From: an uncultured archaeon
GTDB lineage: Archaea; Asgardarchaeota; Lokiarchaeia; Sigyniarchaeales; SOKP01
NCBI GenBank assembly: GCA_964486045.1
Contig: CAZALK010000004.1
Coordinates: 128,001-192,000, forward strand
Length of the DNA: 64,000 nucleotides
Reading direction: 5' to 3'
Below are positions 50,774-58,336 of this stretch, piece by piece (positions within the stretch are counted from its first letter, which is position 1; each line of letters starts with the position of its first letter). The translations under genes were made by a program, and so were the position numbers. Under the pieces are notes generated by a model, which worked only from the letters and a program-made list of their open reading frames with translations, had not been told where the DNA came from and made no database searches.

Positions 50774-51008
50774 AAATCTAACCTTGCCTTATCTTAATTA
50801 GTGGATTAATACATTATAATTAGTTCGGTAAATATAAACATTTTATGAATCAAATTCTATTTAAATATATGTGAAAGGCAAAACTTACGCTTTTCCTCTT
50901 TATAGAAAGAATTAAAATAGTATCAATTACCTTTTTTAAATATTTTTAATATCTCTACTAAAATTTTTAACTGAATATTTTTTTGTCTAAAAATAATTTA
51001 AAGCGTGC

Positions 51009-51425
51009 TTAAGAATTAGCAAAACGACCATTTACTTGCTTAATGGGAAAAATTGAAAAAGTTCCAAATGCCTTAGCAACAAGATTTTCATTGTTCATTA
51101 TTTCAGATTCTAACACACTAATACTCCGTCCTTTATGAATAACCTTAGTGTTGCAAATAAGTTCTCCCTTCAATACCGGTTTTAAATAGTTTATTTTCAC
51201 TTCTATTGTAGCACAACTTTCATTTTCTTCTAATAGAGAATATAGTGCAGCTCCCATACCCGTATCTGCCATTGAATACATAACACCCCCATGCATAACA
51301 CCGTGGGGATTCATCAATTTTTTTTCCACCTTTAAAGTGCATTGAGAATATCCTTTTTCACGTTCAACGAATGTTAATCCAATTAGCTCAGCGAAAGGAT
51401 GAAAAACCTCAAATTCTTTCGTCAT
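51009..51425 (-). CDS. PaaI-family hotdog thioesterase
   Basis: NPHGVMHGG..YSMADT, TIEVKINYLKP. Confidence 0.92.
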   Translation of the reverse strand: MTKEFEVFHPFAELIGLTFVEREKGYSQCTLKVEKKLMNPHGVMHGGVMYSMADTGMGAALYSLLEENESCATIEVKINYLKPVLKGELICNTKVIHKGRSISVLESEIMNNENLVAKAFGTFSIFPIKQVNGRFANS

Positions 51426-51746
51426 ATGTAAATTCAATAACTCTTTAAATAAAAGACCTTCTAAGTTCACTACCTAATGCACAATTATTATTAAAAGATG
51501 GGTTTGTTTTATCATTCTGCCACCAATGTAACCATAAAAATAATAAATTAGAACACCATAATACTATTCTTCTTCCTTAATAAAACTCATAAAATATGAG
51601 ATTATAAGAAGAATTCTCTCTTTCGAGGAAGATGTAAATTAAACGAATGAGAGATTCCATGAAAAGTTAAATTAAATTACTACTGATTAATATATAAATT
51701 TTAAGAGTGAGAAAAAAAACTCTATCAATCTTCCCAACAATAAAAA

Positions 51747-52592
51747 ATGATTATTTGGATATTGGAAAGTGATTCTGGAATTAAATTGTTATATAAGTCT
51801 TTTTTAAAAACAGATGCTGATGAGGATATAGTTTCTGGGTTTTTAACAGCCTTCAATCATTTTTCTGTAATGGAGTTTAAACAATCAATAGATTCAATAG
51901 AAATGGGTGGCTTACGATGGATATATATATCAGAACCTAAATATAACCTGCTCTTTGTAGCAGCAGGTACTAAAGAAATGAAAACTGAGATCCTTAAGAG
52001 CAGATTAGTGGTGATAAAAAACGCGTTTATAAAGGAATTTGATAAAGTTTGGGAAAAAAAAGGACATAATTGGGATGGAGATCTTAACATCTTTAACCCC
52101 TTTCTTCAATTGATAACGGATTATTATCATCAATGGAAAGAAGTTGAAAATTTAACTCAAACAGCAGATTTCTTCGATATTTTAGGAATATTCCAAAACC
52201 TTTTTATAATGCTGAGAAATATCGTTGAAAATAAAATGTATAAGAAGTCAAAAAATGAAATACTGGATATTATCAATTCTCATTTTACATCTTATATCAC
52301 CCAAAAAGACTTTAAAGCTGAACCAGAGTTGAAGAATATATCCTTTACAAAAGACGAATGGTTTAACATTATCGATATTAATTTAATTAAATGTGATAAA
52401 GAGCTTGTAATTAATAATCTAAAGCATTTACTTACGCATGTAGTAAAAACATTAAAAGAAGTTAAAGGAAATAATTTGTGTCTGAAATATTTTAGAGAAG
52501 AAAAGATATACGGTTATATTATTAATAATATGACTTTATTAAATGATCTAAGTTTAGATATGTATTTATTGGAACTCTTTTTGCAGCTGTAA
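51747..52592 (+). CDS. Longin-domain protein with helical C-terminal extension (eukaryotic signature protein)
   Basis: WIL..SG..L, DIVSGFLTAFNHF, IDSIEM, LLFV, L..IKNAF, WDGDLNIF..F: the beta-beta-alpha-beta3-alpha2 pattern of Asgard longins. Confidence 0.75.
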   Translation: MIIWILESDSGIKLLYKSFLKTDADEDIVSGFLTAFNHFSVMEFKQSIDSIEMGGLRWIYISEPKYNLLFVAAGTKEMKTEILKSRLVVIKNAFIKEFDKVWEKKGHNWDGDLNIFNPFLQLITDYYHQWKEVENLTQTADFFDILGIFQNLFIMLRNIVENKMYKKSKNEILDIINSHFTSYITQKDFKAEPELKNISFTKDEWFNIIDINLIKCDKELVINNLKHLLTHVVKTLKEVKGNNLCLKYFREEKIYGYIINNMTLLNDLSLDMYLLELFLQL

Positions 52593-52697
52593 TATTTGAT
52601 AAATTTAAACTTATTCTGAAGCAATTAAAGTTCAGCCAATATTAGATTGGGATGAAAATTGATGGATAATATATAAAAAGTAATTTATTTTTTTTTA

Positions 52698-52913
52698 AAC
52701 GATTTTCCTTTAAAACTACCACTTCAAAACGAAACTCAAGGCAATTTCGATGGATTTTTAACTATTTTTCAACAAGGAAATGAAAAATTCGGTCTGCAAA
52801 CAGTACTATCAATACCTGGATATTCAATTTTAACTTTTTTATTCATATTTGGGATAGTAATTATCATTTCTGTTGCATCTAAATATAATTTGAATGGCAA
52901 AACCAGAATTTGA
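52698..52913 (+). pseudogene. C-terminal remnant of an SBBP beta-propeller-like surface protein with IPGY-TM (Loki-CTERM-like) signal
   Basis: Open frame without a start: NDFPL..Q...GNFDGFLT...SIPGYSILTFLFIFGIVIIISVASK..KTRI*. Confidence 0.6.
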
Positions 52914-52958
52914 TGCACTAATTCTATGAAAGATTTTTACTTTTAATTATGAAAAGGT

Positions 52959-53107
52959 GGTTCCTGCCAAGGACCTCAATATGAGGTCAAATCCAATAAA
53001 AGAAAAAGTTAAATTTTTAAGTGTGGCTCAAGAGCTACACTACCAAAAGACAAAATTCTGACGAAATCGAGATTTTCGAAATCGGATCCAGGGGATTGAC
53101 AGGAACC
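52959..53107. other. 149-nt structured element (ncRNA or MITE-like)
   Basis: Terminal inverted repeat GGTTCCTGCCAA / TTGACAGGAACC (11/12); internal hairpins at 52972-52988 and 53020-53041; GC-richer than flanks. Confidence 0.5.
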
Positions 53108-53312
53108 TTGTTTTAAGGACATAATTTTTAGATTTAACATCTCTTATTTTTCATTAAATTCAAGAAAAATTTGTCTTACTTACTTAATCTAATTATTTTC
53201 ATGAATATAAATATTTAGTGTATAATTTATTCTTTATATAGGAATATCTTGAATTTATACATTAATATCACCATAAAAATAATAAATTATAATACAATAT
53301 TCTTATTAGGAT

Positions 53313-53345
53313 ATAAATAATTTCAACCCTAAATATTTTGAAGTG
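53313..53345 (+). promoter_or_regulatory. Putative MarR operator copy 1 (between TATA box and marR start)
   Basis: ataaataatttcaaccctaaatattttgaagtg; 24/33 identical to 53871-53903. Confidence 0.55.
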
Positions 53346-53350
53346 AAAAA

Positions 53351-53830
53351 ATGTCTGAAAAAGATTCTACTTGTGAAGATGATACCTGCGAGGTGCTCGA
53401 TTTCTCTAAAATTTTTCAATTAATCAATATTTTAAATAAAAAGTATGATAAGTTGCAACGTAAAATTGTGAAGAATGATAATCTCACCCCACCTCAACAT
53501 TCAATATTAATGCAGTTATGGGATTCTGATGGAAAACGATTTAAAGAATTAGCGTCGGCGTGCTGTTGCTCCCCTTCAACAATAACGGGAATAGTAGATA
53601 CTATGGAAAAACATGATTTAGTTTATAGGAAAAATAATCCAGAAGATAGACGAAGTCTTCTTGTAAACCTTACCGAAAAGGGAAGAGAAATTCAAAAGAA
53701 TACTCAACCAATCAAAATTATTTTAGAGAACTGTTGTGAAGGTTTTTCAGCTGAAGATGTTGATCAACTTACTCATTTATTAAATAAATTGTCTGATTCA
53801 TTTGAAATTAGTGGATTGGATAACTGTTAA
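53351..53830 (+). CDS. Cys-rich MarR-family transcriptional regulator
   Basis: LTPPQ..IL, ELA, STITGIVD.MEK..LV.R..DRRS..V.LTEKG; 8 Cys including CCC in the HTH. Confidence 0.92.
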   Translation: MSEKDSTCEDDTCEVLDFSKIFQLINILNKKYDKLQRKIVKNDNLTPPQHSILMQLWDSDGKRFKELASACCCSPSTITGIVDTMEKHDLVYRKNNPEDRRSLLVNLTEKGREIQKNTQPIKIILENCCEGFSAEDVDQLTHLLNKLSDSFEISGLDNC

Positions 53831-53870
53831 TCATTACTTCCATTTGTGGATTAGAATTTTTAATAAATCA

Positions 53871-53910
53871 ATAAATACTTCGGACCCGAAATATTCGGAA
53901 CTCTTATATA
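53871..53910 (+). promoter_or_regulatory. Putative MarR operator copy 2 plus TATA box of the peptide-methyltransferase-arsM operon
   Basis: ATAcTTCGG-ac-CCGAAaTAT palindrome immediately upstream of TTATATA (53904-53910). Confidence 0.6.
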
Positions 53911-53983
53911 TTAGTATTGATTATTAATAATTAAAATAAATTTTTTCTTAAAACTCAAAAAAATAAATAATCTTGAAAGAAAT

Positions 53984-54127
53984 ATGACAGATCAAAAAAC
54001 AGCAGAATTAATTAAAGTGTACGAGTCGAAAAAAGCGAAGAAAGCACTTTATTCTCAATGTAATACTCACCAATGTTACATTCCTCAGTATAATTTGACT
54101 TATCAAGGATCTTCCTGTCGATGTTAA
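53984..54127 (+). CDS. Unannotated 47-aa Cys-rich peptide
   Basis: MTDQKTAELIKVYESKKAKKALYSQCNTHQCYIPQYNLTYQGSSCRC*; first ORF after the promoter, 30 nt before the methyltransferase. Confidence 0.6.
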   Translation: MTDQKTAELIKVYESKKAKKALYSQCNTHQCYIPQYNLTYQGSSCRC

Positions 54128-54157
54128 GATTGTGGGAAAATAATTAAATAGGATTAA

Positions 54158-54973
54158 ATGATAAGACTTATGAAAAGGCAAGGGATTTATAAACCAACAA
54201 TAGAGGATATTATTGAAATAAGTGGTATTGAGACTCTCCACCCTGGAGGTATGGTTTTAACACTCCGAGCAGCTGAATTTGCTGGATTAAAGCCAGGAAT
54301 GAAGGTTTTGGATGTATCGAGTGGTAGAGGTACTCAATCTATTTTGTATGCTAGAGAATTTGGAGTTCATGTTACTGGTGTTGATATTTCGGAAGATATG
54401 GTTAAATCTGCTACGGAGAATGCAAAAAAGGAACAAATGGATGAATTAACTACTTTCAAAATAGGTGATTCTCAAAAATTACCATTTGAAGATAATTATT
54501 TTGATGTAGTTATTAATGAATGTGCTGTCGGAATTCCAGATGATTCTCAAAAGGTTTTGGATGAGATGGTCCGAGTTGCTAAAAATGGAGCATCAATAGT
54601 GATTCACGAATCGACATGGCGTAAAACTATAACCGAAGAAGAAAAGAATGAGATTTCTGAGAGGTATGGTACTACACCATTAGAATATGATGAGTGGATT
54701 TCTATGTTAGAAAAAGCTGGTGTAAGGGAAATTACTACCGAGTTTGATGAATGGTCAAAACCTGAGATGTTTTGGAAAATTCGACAAGATCGTGATGTGG
54801 AAGATTTTTCGAAAATATACACACGTTCTGAATTATCAACATTAATTGGAAGAGTTTCTCAAAAACACGGACAAGAAGGAGTAATGATAGCACTTGAAAA
54901 TCAGAAAAAATTTACACAAGTAGTCCTTGATGGTAAATTGGGCTATGGTTTATTTAAAGGAATCAAAAAATAA
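54158..54973 (+). CDS. Class I SAM-dependent methyltransferase (type 11, HPGG subgroup)
   Basis: LHPGG..LT, VLDVSSGRG, GVDISEDMV, GDSQKLPFEDNYFD, EMVRVAKNG. Confidence 0.9.
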   Translation: MIRLMKRQGIYKPTIEDIIEISGIETLHPGGMVLTLRAAEFAGLKPGMKVLDVSSGRGTQSILYAREFGVHVTGVDISEDMVKSATENAKKEQMDELTTFKIGDSQKLPFEDNYFDVVINECAVGIPDDSQKVLDEMVRVAKNGASIVIHESTWRKTITEEEKNEISERYGTTPLEYDEWISMLEKAGVREITTEFDEWSKPEMFWKIRQDRDVEDFSKIYTRSELSTLIGRVSQKHGQEGVMIALENQKKFTQVVLDGKLGYGLFKGIKK

Positions 54974-55002
54974 CAAAAAGAAAAAAACAAGATGGAACAA
55001 AA

Positions 55003-55971
55003 ATGGTTGAAGAAAATTCTTTAGAAGATGAGAAAATTAGGCAGATAGTAAGAGAACAATATGGAAGGGTAGCCGAAGGGCGATCAGAGAGTTCAAGTTG
55101 TTGTGGTCCTACTGCAAATACAGAAGTCCCCACTAATAGTTGTTGCGGTCCGGCTGCACCTACTGTGAACTTAGAGTTAAACTCCAGCAGTGAAAATGCC
55201 AGCAGTCCTATAAAGATCCCAGCTGATAAATTAGGTAAATTCATGAAAAGTTATAGTTCTCAATTAGGGTACACTGAAGAGGATCTTAGAACTATTCCTG
55301 ATGGTGCTAATCTGGGGCTAGGGTGTGGCAATCCAACCGCACACGCATCTATTCAGGAAGGAGAAACAGTTCTGGATCTTGGAGCGGGTGGTGGTTTAGA
55401 TTGTTTCATAGCAGCAGATAAAGTAGGAAAAACAGGGAAAGTTATTGGAGTAGATATGACTCCTCAGATGATTGATCGAGCTCGAAATAATGCAAGAAAG
55501 GGCAATTATGAGAATATTGAATTTCGGCTAGGGGAAATCGAGAACCTCCCTGTTGCTAATGATTCTGTGGATCTAATTATGTCAAATTGTGTTATTAATC
55601 TTTCTCCTAATAAAGATAGGGTATTTAATGAAGCTTTCAGAGTGCTCAAGCCAGGTGGAAGGATGCTGATTTCAGATATTGTTCTACTAAAAGAATTACC
55701 CGATGTCATCAAAGATAACAAAGAAGCATATTGTGGGTGCATATCAGGAGCAATCTTGAAAAAGCGGTATATAGAATTAATAGAAGAAGCGGGATTTCAA
55801 GATGTTGAAATTATGGAAGAGAGCGATTACTCTACAGTTGATTTTTTACTTGATGATCCAATCGCTGGAGCAGCTTTAAAAGAACAAGGAAGAGATCTTG
55901 AGGAATTGAAAAATCTAGAAGAATACATCACAAATTCAAGTATAAAAGTTAAAGCAATAAAACCAAATTAA
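55003..55971 (+). CDS. arsM: Arsenite S-adenosylmethionine methyltransferase
   Basis: VREQYG, SCCG (twice), [47 protein letters not shown]. Confidence 0.93.
55096..55158 (+). repeat. Internal 21-nt duplication encoding two SCCGP motifs in ArsM
   Basis: agttgttgtggtcctactgca (55096) vs agttgttgcggtccggctgca (55138). Confidence 0.75.
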
Positions 55972-56018
55972 TACTTTTTTTATTTATTTTTTAAACTAAA
56001 ACCTTAGTTCCAACAATT

Positions 56019-57047
56019 CTAATTCTTATTACCACAATAAGGACATATTTCGACTTTTAGATCAATCAGGTTTTTACAAAATGAACACTCTAATTGATTG
56101 TCTTTAACATTATCTAAATCCTTACTTTCTAGTGACTCAAGGTGATTAAGGAAATCAGAAATAGTTTGCTTATTAATAATCATATAATCACCATCAATTG
56201 TGAATTCAAACTTCTTAGCCCACTCAAAAATTTTGTCATTAAAACTATGTTTTTCTAATTCTAATGTGGTACGTATCATCTTAAGTTTTAAACGATTCGA
56301 AACTTTTAACATCGTTTTTAATTTTTTAAATTTTTCTTTCTCACTTTTTTTAAATTCTAGGCGTTCGGATTCCTTATACATTTTAGTTTGATTTAATACA
56401 TCATATAGTTTTTCAGTTTTCAACTTATCTTTTCTTAGTTTTCTCCGTTGCATTTTTAAAGGAAATATTGAATAAGTTTTTCCATTTTTTGTTTCAATTT
56501 TTACATACGTGGTTGAACCTTCGATTTCCATTGTTATCTCTCTAAAATCTAAGACATCAATCTTATACATTCCTTCTGAATGGAAAGATTTGAATAAAAT
56601 ATAGTTTTCCGTTAAAAAAAGCTGTCCATGAATCGTAATATCTTTTAAATCATAATTGAGGAGAGAACCAATGTGAAAACTTACTACGGCATCAAATAAA
56701 ATTATTTGATCTCTATTAAAAATTAATCTAGTTAATTGTCTAAACAACTCCATCGTCATTTCTTTGGAAGGACTATAGATATTATTCTTTTGTCTCATGG
56801 GATATAGAGTATAAAATGTATGATGTGGTGTCTCGAGTTCTATTAGTGTAATCTTAAATCTAATTTTCCTTGATATATCTTGAATCTCAGATAGTTTAAC
56901 TTGAAATAGGATTTTATCTACTAATGATTCAAATGAAAGGAAGGTTTCCGTTAGGAAAATAGTTCCTTTGGATTTTTTAGAAACTAAGTGCCTAAACGAA
57001 GGTATTCCTGTGCTGAAACTCCCGTATGATTCAAATAAAGTTGCCAT
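56019..57047 (-). CDS. Tandem PH/GRAM-like domains + winged-helix + C-terminal Zn ribbon protein
   Basis: Internal repeat KGTIFLTETFLSFES / HGQLFLTENYILFKS; IFEWAKKFEFTIDGDY; CSFC..CPYCG. Confidence 0.6.
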   Translation of the reverse strand: MATLFESYGSFSTGIPSFRHLVSKKSKGTIFLTETFLSFESLVDKILFQVKLSEIQDISRKIRFKITLIELETPHHTFYTLYPMRQKNNIYSPSKEMTMELFRQLTRLIFNRDQIILFDAVVSFHIGSLLNYDLKDITIHGQLFLTENYILFKSFHSEGMYKIDVLDFREITMEIEGSTTYVKIETKNGKTYSIFPLKMQRRKLRKDKLKTEKLYDVLNQTKMYKESERLEFKKSEKEKFKKLKTMLKVSNRLKLKMIRTTLELEKHSFNDKIFEWAKKFEFTIDGDYMIINKQTISDFLNHLESLESKDLDNVKDNQLECSFCKNLIDLKVEICPYCGNKN

Positions 57048-57233
57048 ACTTAGTCCTCAATAGCAATTATCGGTAAAATGTGTGTTATTATTTTAATATT
57101 GATTTTTATGAAGATAAATTTATAGTACCGATTTTTCTTTATAATCAAATTGTACTTACTAAAAGATTAAATTATAAAAACTCTAAAAATTTTCCCTAAT
57201 TAATAATTTGTAATTAACGAGAAATTACGAGAA

Positions 57234-57602
57234 ATGGTATCTTTTACATTTGTTGTCTGCGCCGAACCTTATAAGTATGAAGCAATAGATACTGTAATTA
57301 ATTTAGGTGAAGCTATAATAAAAAAGGGGCATGAGATTTTAGGAGTTTTTCTCTATGGAAGCGGTGTATACAATATTAAAAGCAGAGAAATTTCAAGTGA
57401 TTCCCTAAGAGATTTACCAAAGCGTCTGAGGAACTTCTGTAAAATAAATAAAACCATATTAACATCTTGCAGCACATGGATTAGTTTTACTGGCATCCAA
57501 TCACCAGAAATTATTGAAGGGGCATCCCAAGAAGGATTAGGGGCATTATCAGATTTTATTGCAAGATCTGATCGAGTTCTCTTTTTTGGTCCAGGAGGGT
57601 AA
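57234..57602 (+). CDS. dsrE: DsrE/TusD-like sulfur relay subunit
   Basis: EPYKYE, GHEILGVFLYGSGVYN, conserved Cys (TSCS), GLGAL...DRVLFF. Confidence 0.85.
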   Translation: MVSFTFVVCAEPYKYEAIDTVINLGEAIIKKGHEILGVFLYGSGVYNIKSREISSDSLRDLPKRLRNFCKINKTILTSCSTWISFTGIQSPEIIEGASQEGLGALSDFIARSDRVLFFGPGG

Positions 57603-57608
57603 TAGTTA

Positions 57609-57977
57609 ATGGCAAATTCAATAATTATAATTTGTGAAGACTCTCCATTTGGAAAAGATTCTCCTGTGGAAACTATTCGTATGGCTACGGGGATATTAGC
57701 AATTGGGGATATAGAGAATTGTAAAGTGGTGTTCATGAAAGATGCTTTATACTTTCTTAATAAGAAATTGAATCCTGACGCTTTACAAGTTGATCATTTT
57801 GATAATATAATGAGGTTAATTAAGCTTTCTGGGTTAGAGATTTATGTCCATGATACTGCAATGGAAGTAGCTGGGCTGCTTAGATCAGATCTACTGCCAA
57901 TCGATAATATAAAAATAGTAGGTATAGAGGAAATTAGCCAATTAATATTAGACGCAGATATGAGTTTTAAATATTAG
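57609..57977 (+). CDS. dsrF: DsrF/TusC-like subunit
   Basis: SPFG...ETIR, VFMKDAL; middle gene of the E-F-H triad. Confidence 0.82.
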   Translation: MANSIIIICEDSPFGKDSPVETIRMATGILAIGDIENCKVVFMKDALYFLNKKLNPDALQVDHFDNIMRLIKLSGLEIYVHDTAMEVAGLLRSDLLPIDNIKIVGIEEISQLILDADMSFKY

Positions 57978-57994
57978 AAAAGTGGTGAAAACTA

Positions 57995-58336
57995 ATGGCG
58001 GACAATAATTCCATTGTATATTTATATGGATTTAGCACGGTGTTGGAGTCAAAACTAATAAATTTAATAAAAATTATCGAAAAACAAATTGAGCAAAACA
58101 GTAAAATCAGTGTTGTTTTTATCCATGATGGGGTAATTGGAACTTCTAGTGTAAATAAAGCATCACCATCTATGACAAAGCTATTAAATTTACCCATTAC
58201 GACTTATTCCCTTCTTCCTGATCTTAATGCTCGTGGGATTGATGCAACACAACTTAAAACTAAAATTGTTGGAATTGCTTATGAAGATTTGGTTGACATA
58301 CTAGTTACAAACCCAAAAATAGTATCGTGGATGTAG
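57995..58336 (+). CDS. dsrH: DsrH/TusB-like subunit
   Basis: FIHDGV, DLNARGI, YEDLVD, terminal SW. Confidence 0.85.
   Translation: MADNNSIVYLYGFSTVLESKLINLIKIIEKQIEQNSKISVVFIHDGVIGTSSVNKASPSMTKLLNLPITTYSLLPDLNARGIDATQLKTKIVGIAYEDLVDILVTNPKIVSWM

Follow-up and report, generated by a model that had tools for sequence, protein, structure and literature searches.

The 64,000-nucleotide stretch of DNA analysed here (hereafter the window) is part of contig CAZALK010000004.1 from an uncultured archaeon of the lineage Lokiarchaeia, and the names under which near-identical homologues were deposited (Promethearchaeota, Lokiarchaeota and similar) fit an Asgard origin. The subject of this study is a putative arsenic-methylation locus at which, as reported in the initial annotation of this DNA, four co-oriented open reading frames (ORFs) are found on the forward strand: a MarR-type regulator (53351-53830, 159 aa), a micropeptide (53984-54127, 47 aa), a methyltransferase here called MT2 (54158-54973, 271 aa as called) and the methyltransferase ArsM (55003-55971, 322 aa). 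The four products carry eight, four, one and nine cysteine residues, respectively. With the called starts, 30 nt separate the peptide and MT2 genes and 29 nt separate MT2 and arsM, in agreement with the regular spacing noted earlier; however, MT2 orthologues in the family alignment begin at the residue equivalent to M5 (position 54170), and the true start of MT2 may lie there, in which case the gap between peptide and MT2 would be 42 nt and the regularity would be altered. Genes for ArsR, ArsC or Acr3 were not found within the window, as had also been stated for the immediate surroundings of the locus.

Between marR and the micropeptide gene lies a putative 23-bp operator, TTCGGACCCGAAATATTCGGAAC (53879-53901, + strand), which runs into the position of the transcription factor B recognition element (BRE). 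This sequence (TTCGGAnCCGAAATATTCGGAAC) is composed of three TTCGGA/TCCGAA half-sites in two overlapping palindromes, with the 3' half-site at the BRE position, and is followed by the TATA box CTTATATAT (53903-53911, + strand), which archaeal promoter architecture predicts to belong to the promoter of the peptide-MT2-arsM unit, and by the conserved downstream element TTGATTATT of the same promoter region (53917-53925, + strand). The operator is unique in the 5.18-Mb genome, even when up to 2 mismatches are allowed. Furthermore, all 19 of the 19 MarR-to-arsM intergenic regions compared, from three genera, contain TTCGGAnCCnAAATnTyCGGAACC abutting TTTATATA, and then TTGATTATT; the conserved operator-promoter block corresponds to positions 53879-53925 of the window, and CCTTTATATA together with TTGATTATT is kept in orthologous loci. 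A degenerate copy of the operator is present at marR itself (~53321-53342, + strand; core CCTAAATATTTTGAA at 53328-53342), 9 nt before the ATG of that gene, and a TATA-like box, GATATAAATA, was recognised from the sequence at 53310-53319 on the same strand; the AAGGATATAAATAATTTCGATCCTAAATATTT block upstream of marR is conserved in seven genomes. The two operator copies of the initial annotation were recovered, as CCKAAATATTYKGAA matches at exactly two sites, 53328-53342 and 53886-53900 (2 observed versus 0.27 expected), both of which are kept in orthologous loci. A conserved and unique sequence containing TCCGAAATATTCGGA, with a second copy at the promoter of the regulator gene, would be a suitable candidate for a MarR-type palindromic operator acting on both the regulated promoter and its own. 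In the light of archaeal promoter architecture, this placement would fit a repressor that excludes TBP and TFB at the arsM promoter, and RNA polymerase at the marR promoter.

The regulator protein matches PF01047 at 67.4 bits (Pfam cut-off 24.6), while PF01022 (HTH_5, the ArsR/SmtB domain) is not among its Pfam matches; on the strength of these profiles it is a member of the MarR family and not of the ArsR/SmtB family, though it may act like an ArsR. Its cysteines, exactly eight as counted earlier, are located at positions 8, 13, 71, 72, 73, 128, 129 and 159, and so define four clusters. In the AlphaFold2 (AF2) model, helices 64-70 and 75-87 and strands 91-95 and 103-107 are predicted to form the helix 3-turn-helix 4 and beta-wing of a DNA-binding head, and the CCC cluster would accordingly be placed in the four-residue loop between helix 64-70 and the recognition helix 75-87, i.e. 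in the turn of the helix-turn-helix (HTH). A homology search returned 233 MarR homologues, and among the best 120 of these CCC is present at the HTH turn in 113, the rest having CxC, or RCC in one case. An alignment of 61 family members shows no variation at C73, C128 and C129, and conservation of at least 90% at C71, C72 and C159; generic MarR proteins of known structure in the PDB carry non-Cys residues at these positions. All PDB profile matches of the protein are MarR proteins, the closest of which include OhrR and MgrA. The consecutive PDB codes 8XT7 (an ArsM) and 8XT8 (a MarR) were considered as a possible known MarR-ArsM pair, and this was dropped, as 8XT8 lacks the CCC/CC signature and no paper was found. 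Repressors of the R773 ArsR type are characterised by a C32-x-C34 As(III) site within their DNA-binding region, and the CCC cluster in the HTH turn of the window MarR may be comparable to it, as a functional analogy rather than as a sign of family membership.

The occurrence of this MarR subfamily was assessed in 400 genomes of the phylum, where it was detected in 55 of the 134 genomes of the family to which the window belongs, in one genome of a neighbouring family, and in none of the others. A MarR of at least 55% identity is located directly upstream of arsM in 19 of 20 loci, from genera g1, g18 and g28 of a single Asgard family, and in G264 and G268 a more distant MarR lies next to arsM in divergent orientation. 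The micropeptide ORF is conserved in only six of the 19 MarR-arsM loci, in g1 and g28. MT2 is present in about 11 arsM loci, either before arsM (the MarR-type loci G000, G028, G002 and G226, and six loci of the HgcC type described below) or after it (G259), and pseudogene remnants of MT2 were found in G008, G011, G222 and G217. The conserved unit is thus MarR, operator/TATA and arsM, to which the peptide and MT2 are optional additions. Consequently, of the marR-peptide-methyltransferase-arsM order highlighted by the initial annotation only the succession of marR and arsM is conserved, and the idea of a four-gene architecture acting as one unit was not upheld. One of these loci (G217:C37:117909-121373) has two tandem ArsM copies, ~50% and ~55% identical to that of the window, downstream of one MarR and with an MT2 remnant between them. 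No description of a MarR-arsM or AbrB/HgcC-arsM pairing was found in the literature (open-access papers and bioRxiv).

In sister genomes that lack the MarR, a 102-aa Cys-rich protein (with CxC, CC and CC) is encoded directly before MT2-arsM or arsM. This HgcC-like protein (e.g. L023:3199-3504) scores 98.7 bits on NF040962 (cut-off 70) and additionally matches the AbrB domain models TIGR01439 and PF04014; a scan of the window's own genome with NF040962 gave no match above cut-off. ArsM exceeds its cut-off in 48 of the 135 genomes of the family. In genus g1 each of the 24 arsM-bearing genomes has exactly one regulator upstream of the orthologous arsM, a MarR in 11 and an HgcC-like protein in 13, and the family-wide count is 21 MarR-type, 18 HgcC-type and nine undetermined. 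In a tree of ArsM, which is midpoint-rooted only, the HgcC-linked enzymes nest within the MarR-linked ones, a topology that requires a minimum of two switches. In the phylum as a whole, 56 of the 400 genomes, from 15 genera, carry the HgcC-like gene; of the 30 loci fetched, which come from many Asgard families, 28 have it immediately before ArsM (e.g. L179 1489-2506; L183 500-1767), so that HgcC-like-arsM would appear to be the general Asgard arrangement and MarR-arsM a family-specific replacement. For archaeal hgcA, an upstream gene of AbrB/PrlF type has been put forward as regulating mercury methylation, and arsenic-responsive, ArsR-like control of hgcAB has been reported (PMC10349881).

Because of the conserved adjacency, the conserved operator, the near-invariant cysteines and the displacement by another Cys-rich regulator, it is very probable that the MarR is a dedicated local regulator of the arsM-unit promoter. 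The proposal of a MarR-controlled As(III) operon in the initial annotation thereby stands as regards a dedicated Cys-rich MarR with two operators, instead of an ArsR, at arsM; that the effector is As(III) or another arsenical is suggested, with moderate confidence, by the gene linkage and by cysteine chemistry.

A second, paralogous clade of this MarR subfamily, ~50% identical to the first, has CC both N-terminally and after helix 5, with CNC in the HTH turn, and in six of 10 loci (e.g. L197 1681-4503, in G009:C96) it is encoded directly upstream of genes for a micropeptide, an HgcA-like fusion and an HgcB-like protein. The micropeptide of this operon is acidic, comprises 27-29 aa and has two CC pairs, the fusion protein (552-553 aa) combines a class I S-adenosylmethionine (SAM) methyltransferase with an HgcA-like domain bearing a cap-helix-like GINVWCAARG and scores 168-176 bits on NF040863, which is below the cut-off of 275, and the HgcB-like protein is a two-cluster ferredoxin of 101 aa with CC at its end. 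The promoter palindrome, TTAGGAnCCTAA, differs from the arsM operator by one base per half-site. In the window's genome an HgcA-like fusion and an HgcB-like gene are present on contig 16 (L198 1011-3033) with no MarR in front. Both operons share one design, in which a Cys-rich MarR and an operator placed at the TATA box precede the genes of a Cys-rich micropeptide and of an enzyme of metal(loid)-methylation type. This recurrence is the strongest, albeit indirect, argument for regarding the MarR subfamily as sensors of thiophilic metal(loid)s and the micropeptides as working parts of the operons.

The last gene of the locus (55003-55971) is, judged by its profile score and cysteines, that of a bona fide As(III) SAM methyltransferase ArsM. 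The protein reaches 336.5 bits on NF008823 (cut-off 263), and in the whole-genome scan, at 324.9 bits, it is the sole match over cut-off; its best PDB matches are the arsenite methyltransferases 5EVJ, 4KW7 and 4FR0. With C44, C72, C174 and C224 of CmArsM as the four-Cys reference, alignment to 5EVJ and 4FR0 assigns C33/34 (and C47/48), C108 in GCGNP, C196 in SNCVINL and C246 in C-x-SGA, and the earlier statement that all canonical Cys motifs are present was borne out; the N-terminal CCGP motif is duplicated in the window enzyme. Elsewhere in the genome, an Acr3 (279 bits, just under cut-off) is encoded on contig 25 in divergent pairing with a canonical ArsR (MCICEL), and a profile scan detected no pI258-type ArsC or full-length ArsA above cut-off. 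A published survey lists Asgard archaea with arsM and acr3 and no arsC, with which this genome agrees (PMC10060404).

MT2 belongs to an unnamed family of class I SAM methyltransferases of ~267 aa, with a mean column identity of 69% in the family alignment. It matches PF13847 at 82.6 bits and remains below the cut-offs for both the DVU_1556 family (NF045667; 102.7 versus 155 bits) and ArsM (NF008823; 91.6 versus 263 bits). Its single cysteine, C122, is invariant, as are many aromatic and acidic residues. The folds nearest to its AF2 model (predicted local distance difference test score, pLDDT, 92) are those of the small-molecule methyltransferases TleD, AtmM, RebM, PMT and SDMT type, and ArsM is neither among the 35 PDB sequence matches at E<=1e-5 nor among the Foldseek matches listed; a look-up in the ESM Atlas returned nothing functional. 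A role as PMT-type N-methyltransferase was also considered and rejected. Residue His132 of PfPMT (in the D-x-I-x-H-I motif) is taken here to be catalytic, and Gly takes its place in MT2, where eCAVGIPD stands opposite rdCIQHIPD in the PMT-2 alignment; MT2 shares with PMT only the fold and an N-terminal xHPGG motif.

MT2 also stands alone in one Asgard genome (L085), and orthologues of 54-65% identity are found in Chlorobiaceae, Bacteroidota, Desulfobacterales, Bacillota, Oligoflexia and Chitinispirillaceae. The bacterial orthologues (~20 loci) are not next to arsM; 12 of ~22 bacterial loci place MT2 behind or near small regulators with vicinal or CxC cysteines. Nine of these, from Bacteroidota (L097-L110, e.g. 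L098 3346-3942), have a Crp/Fnr-type regulator with an invariant (T/S)CFC in its effector domain directly upstream, and two bacterial MT2 genes are located directly behind ArsR/SmtB regulators with CC-containing motifs. Additionally, in a Bacillota metagenome-assembled genome (L088 6-4810) the MT2 orthologue lies beside ArsA (746 bits), an ArsR with CVC and a Cys-rich SelW-like/DF-family protein with CCGP motifs. Because bacterial MT2 sits behind CxC/CC regulators, and once beside arsA-arsR, a metalloid- or thiol-related substrate is plausible, although our confidence in it falls clearly short of even. Nothing in the evidence on MT2 supports arsenobetaine chemistry, and the earlier suggestion that the enzyme extends ArsM chemistry in that direction finds no footing; MT2 is not of ArsM type in its score, its lone cysteine or its TleD/PMT-like fold. 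As a separate observation, contig 3 of the same genome (L014 41-2163) encodes a radical SAM protein (TrsS/Tes-like, ~310 bits, below cut-off) directly followed by an MT2 paralogue (39% identical) with an N-terminal SCC motif, a pair that recalls the radical SAM and ArsM pairs of the arsenosugar and arsinothricin pathways.

The micropeptide has a Lys-rich, helical N-terminal half, a C-x4-C-[W/Y/F] motif and a C-terminal CRC, with cysteines at positions 26, 31, 45 and 47. Members of its family usually end in CRC or CC, and some have only two cysteines. A profile search of 1.84 billion proteins yielded eight cluster representatives of 40-54 aa. No Pfam family was matched (SR1P 16.8 bits, cut-off 26), nor was ArsD, there was no match in NCBIfam, and the ESM Atlas gave no usable look-alike. 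Judged from this sequence conservation the peptide is a real, though rare and dispensable, gene, and by analogy it is possible that its product serves as an As(III) carrier or buffer. The notion that peptide and MT2 together represent a split ArsM paralogue was discarded, as the peptide occurs without MT2 in G026, G033 and G257 and the fold and scores of MT2 are not ArsM-like.

Downstream of the locus, oligo-T tracts follow right after the arsM stop codon (55972-55992, + strand) and likely represent an archaeal terminator. An Rfam scan of 51000-58000 gave no match at E<=0.1, and an RNA element in that region was dropped from consideration. On the opposite strand, between arsM and the DsrE genes, only some genomes encode a 342-aa protein (56019-57047, - strand) that has a zinc ribbon at its C-terminus and two stretches of GRAM domain. 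The DsrE-DsrE-DsrH-like trio itself (57234-58336) adjoins arsM throughout genus g1, only ~100 nt downstream where the GRAM gene is missing, and was not found beside arsM in genera g18 and g28; it was rejected as a part of the system, its linkage being a matter of the conserved genome backbone of genus g1 only.

The explanation that we favour, and consider fairly probable, is that the locus constitutes a self-contained metalloid-response unit in which the Cys-rich MarR acts as an ArsR-analogous, thiol-based metalloid repressor of arsM. What we infer in this model is that the MarR binds DNA, that it represses rather than activates, which effector it responds to and what peptide and MT2 do. A MarR dimer would bind the 23-bp operator that runs into the BRE and TATA box of the peptide-MT2-arsM promoter, as well as the weaker copy just 3' of the marR TATA box, and would thus block TBP, TFB and RNA polymerase, with repression of both promoters as the outcome. 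The thiolates of C71, C72 and C73, probably joined by C128/C129 and/or C159, would then bind a thiophilic metalloid, for which As(III) or one of its methylated forms is the likeliest candidate, and this binding would distort the DNA-reading head and release the repressor. Once derepressed, ArsM would methylate As(III). Optional cargo of the arsM promoter would be MT2, as a small-molecule methyltransferase, and the peptide, which may carry or buffer As(III).

A number of observations weigh against this explanation. In archaea, activators too can work from an operator that overlaps the BRE or lies just upstream of it. A canonical arsR(CxC)-acr3 pair exists elsewhere in the genome, so that a second As(III) sensor is not strictly necessary, though it could sense another species. 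The N-terminal CxxxxC pair of the MarR is missing from some orthologues, the AF2 model, which is of the monomer, reaches only moderate confidence (pLDDT 73), and C128/C129 are predicted to lie in a poorly modelled stretch after helix 5. Finally, C128/C129 align with the resolving Cys127 of Xanthomonas OhrR, which would fit a redox switch equally well.

This last alignment, and the presence of OhrR and MgrA among the closest PDB sequences, lend substance to the alternative that the MarR is a sensor of thiol redox state, sulfane sulfur or electrophiles, of the OhrR/MgrA/SarZ type, through which the redox or sulfide state of the sediment would switch arsM and the hgcA-like operon. Persulfides and electrophiles are likewise reactive towards vicinal thiols, a canonical ArsR is already present in the genome, and a DsrE-DsrE-DsrH trio lies beside arsM throughout genus g1. 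We nevertheless regard this alternative as unlikely: the reactive N-terminal Cys in helix 1 of OhrR is not conserved and aligns to Phe, the DsrEFH linkage is confined to one genus, the linkage of the MarR to metal(loid)-methylation genes is tight and exclusive, and the protein that replaces the MarR belongs to the HgcC family, the only known association of which is with hgcAB. The same replacement bears on whether the cysteines are instead structural, forming a Zn site or Fe-S cluster, with an unrelated organic ligand as effector and arsM regulated without direct metalloid sensing. Eight cysteines in 159 residues could build such a site, as many archaeal regulators do, and residues 116-133 are unstructured in the AF2 model, as expected when a cofactor is missing; however, the cysteine pattern is vicinal (CCC/CxC, CC and a single C-terminal C) and not the CxxC typical of Zn and Fe-S sites, the interchangeable HgcC-like protein likewise has vicinal CC and CxC, and the regulators before bacterial MT2 genes again carry CxC or CC, all of which makes a structural role quite improbable.

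The remaining alternative concerns the operon as a whole, and sees in the four genes a single obligatory pathway, with peptide and MT2 taking the chemistry of ArsM on to trimethyl or arsenobetaine-type products. The genes of the window are co-oriented, tightly spaced and served by one promoter, MT2 is linked to arsM in both orders in Asgard genomes and, in bacteria, is found once beside arsA-arsR and twice directly behind an ArsR/SmtB regulator with vicinal cysteines; the single invariant Cys of MT2 would, furthermore, suit a one-thiol ligand such as dimethylated As(III), DMAs(III). Nonetheless, the peptide is missing from 13 of the 19 MarR-arsM loci and MT2 from most arsM loci, with remnants in the four genomes named above, MT2 is found by itself in another Asgard genome and, without arsM, in ~20 bacterial loci, and its failure as an ArsM family member and a fold nearest to natural-product and PMT-type methyltransferases set it apart from ArsM; an obligatory pathway is therefore very doubtful. 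A wider and speculative reading, which we think rather unlikely to hold in full, is that CCC/CxC MarR and AbrB-type HgcC proteins are interchangeable direct sensors of soft metal(loid)s for arsM and HgcA-like/HgcB-like modules, that the micropeptides encoded by the first ORFs are carriers handing As(III) or Hg(II) to the methyltransferases, and that MT2 is an unrecognised metalloid methyltransferase (of a later step, or of Sb, Se or Te), which bacteria also place behind CxC/CC regulators.

The arsenic-responsive repressors characterised so far for ars and arsM genes are, to our knowledge, members of the ArsR/SmtB family. If the favoured metalloid-repressor explanation is correct, MarR-type regulators, and the AbrB/HgcC-type regulators of sister genomes, dedicated to arsM would add new sensor scaffolds, and would explain how Asgard archaea in anoxic sediments control arsenic methylation, published surveys having listed arsM and acr3 without discussing regulation. 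Through two shared regulator families, the control of arsenic methylation would, moreover, be connected with that of mercury-methylation-like genes. The short, unique and conserved operator and the small size of the proteins make the system directly testable in vitro, and could yield parts for an arsenical biosensor, while MT2 and the micropeptides are candidates for unknown metalloid-handling steps.

Comparison with known systems places the window MarR between two groups of regulators. As in ArsR/SmtB repressors such as R773 ArsR, we propose a small, homodimeric, autoregulated winged-helix repressor that adjoins its arsenic gene, has a CxC-type cluster in the HTH region and is released from DNA upon As(III)-thiolate binding. 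It differs from them in its protein family (PF01047, not PF01022), in its four cysteine clusters and archaeal BRE/TATA promoter context, and in that the genome keeps a separate canonical ArsR for acr3. With the thiol-switch MarRs OhrR, MgrA and SarZ it shares family and fold, these being the nearest sequences of solved structure, cysteine-based regulation and a Cys pair aligned with Cys127 of OhrR; unlike them, it lacks the OhrR-type sensing Cys in helix 1, has CCC/CxC at the HTH turn, where they have no Cys, and is linked to metal(loid) methyltransferases rather than to peroxidases or efflux pumps.

The other components can be compared in the same manner. ArsM of the window shares the SAM fold and the four catalytic/binding cysteines with CmArsM and CrArsM (4FR0 and 5EVJ), but has the duplicated CCGP motif and is without the long C-terminal domain of the algal enzymes. 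The peptide resembles the metallochaperone ArsD in being a small Cys-bearing product co-expressed with arsenic genes, for which a carrier or buffer role would fit, although there is no sequence relationship, its 47 aa compare with ~120 aa in ArsD, it has no ArsA partner and some of its relatives have two cysteines only. HgcC (NF040962), likewise Cys-rich and a presumed regulator of a metal-methylation gene, takes the exact place of the MarR before orthologous arsM, both in sister genomes and phylum-wide; it has an unrelated, swapped-hairpin AbrB/MazE fold, is absent from the window and is tied by the literature to hgcAB, not to arsM (PMC10349881). The general arrangement of a metalloid-responsive repressor with a detoxification or methylation gene is a known one, and the new part would be its construction on other regulator scaffolds.

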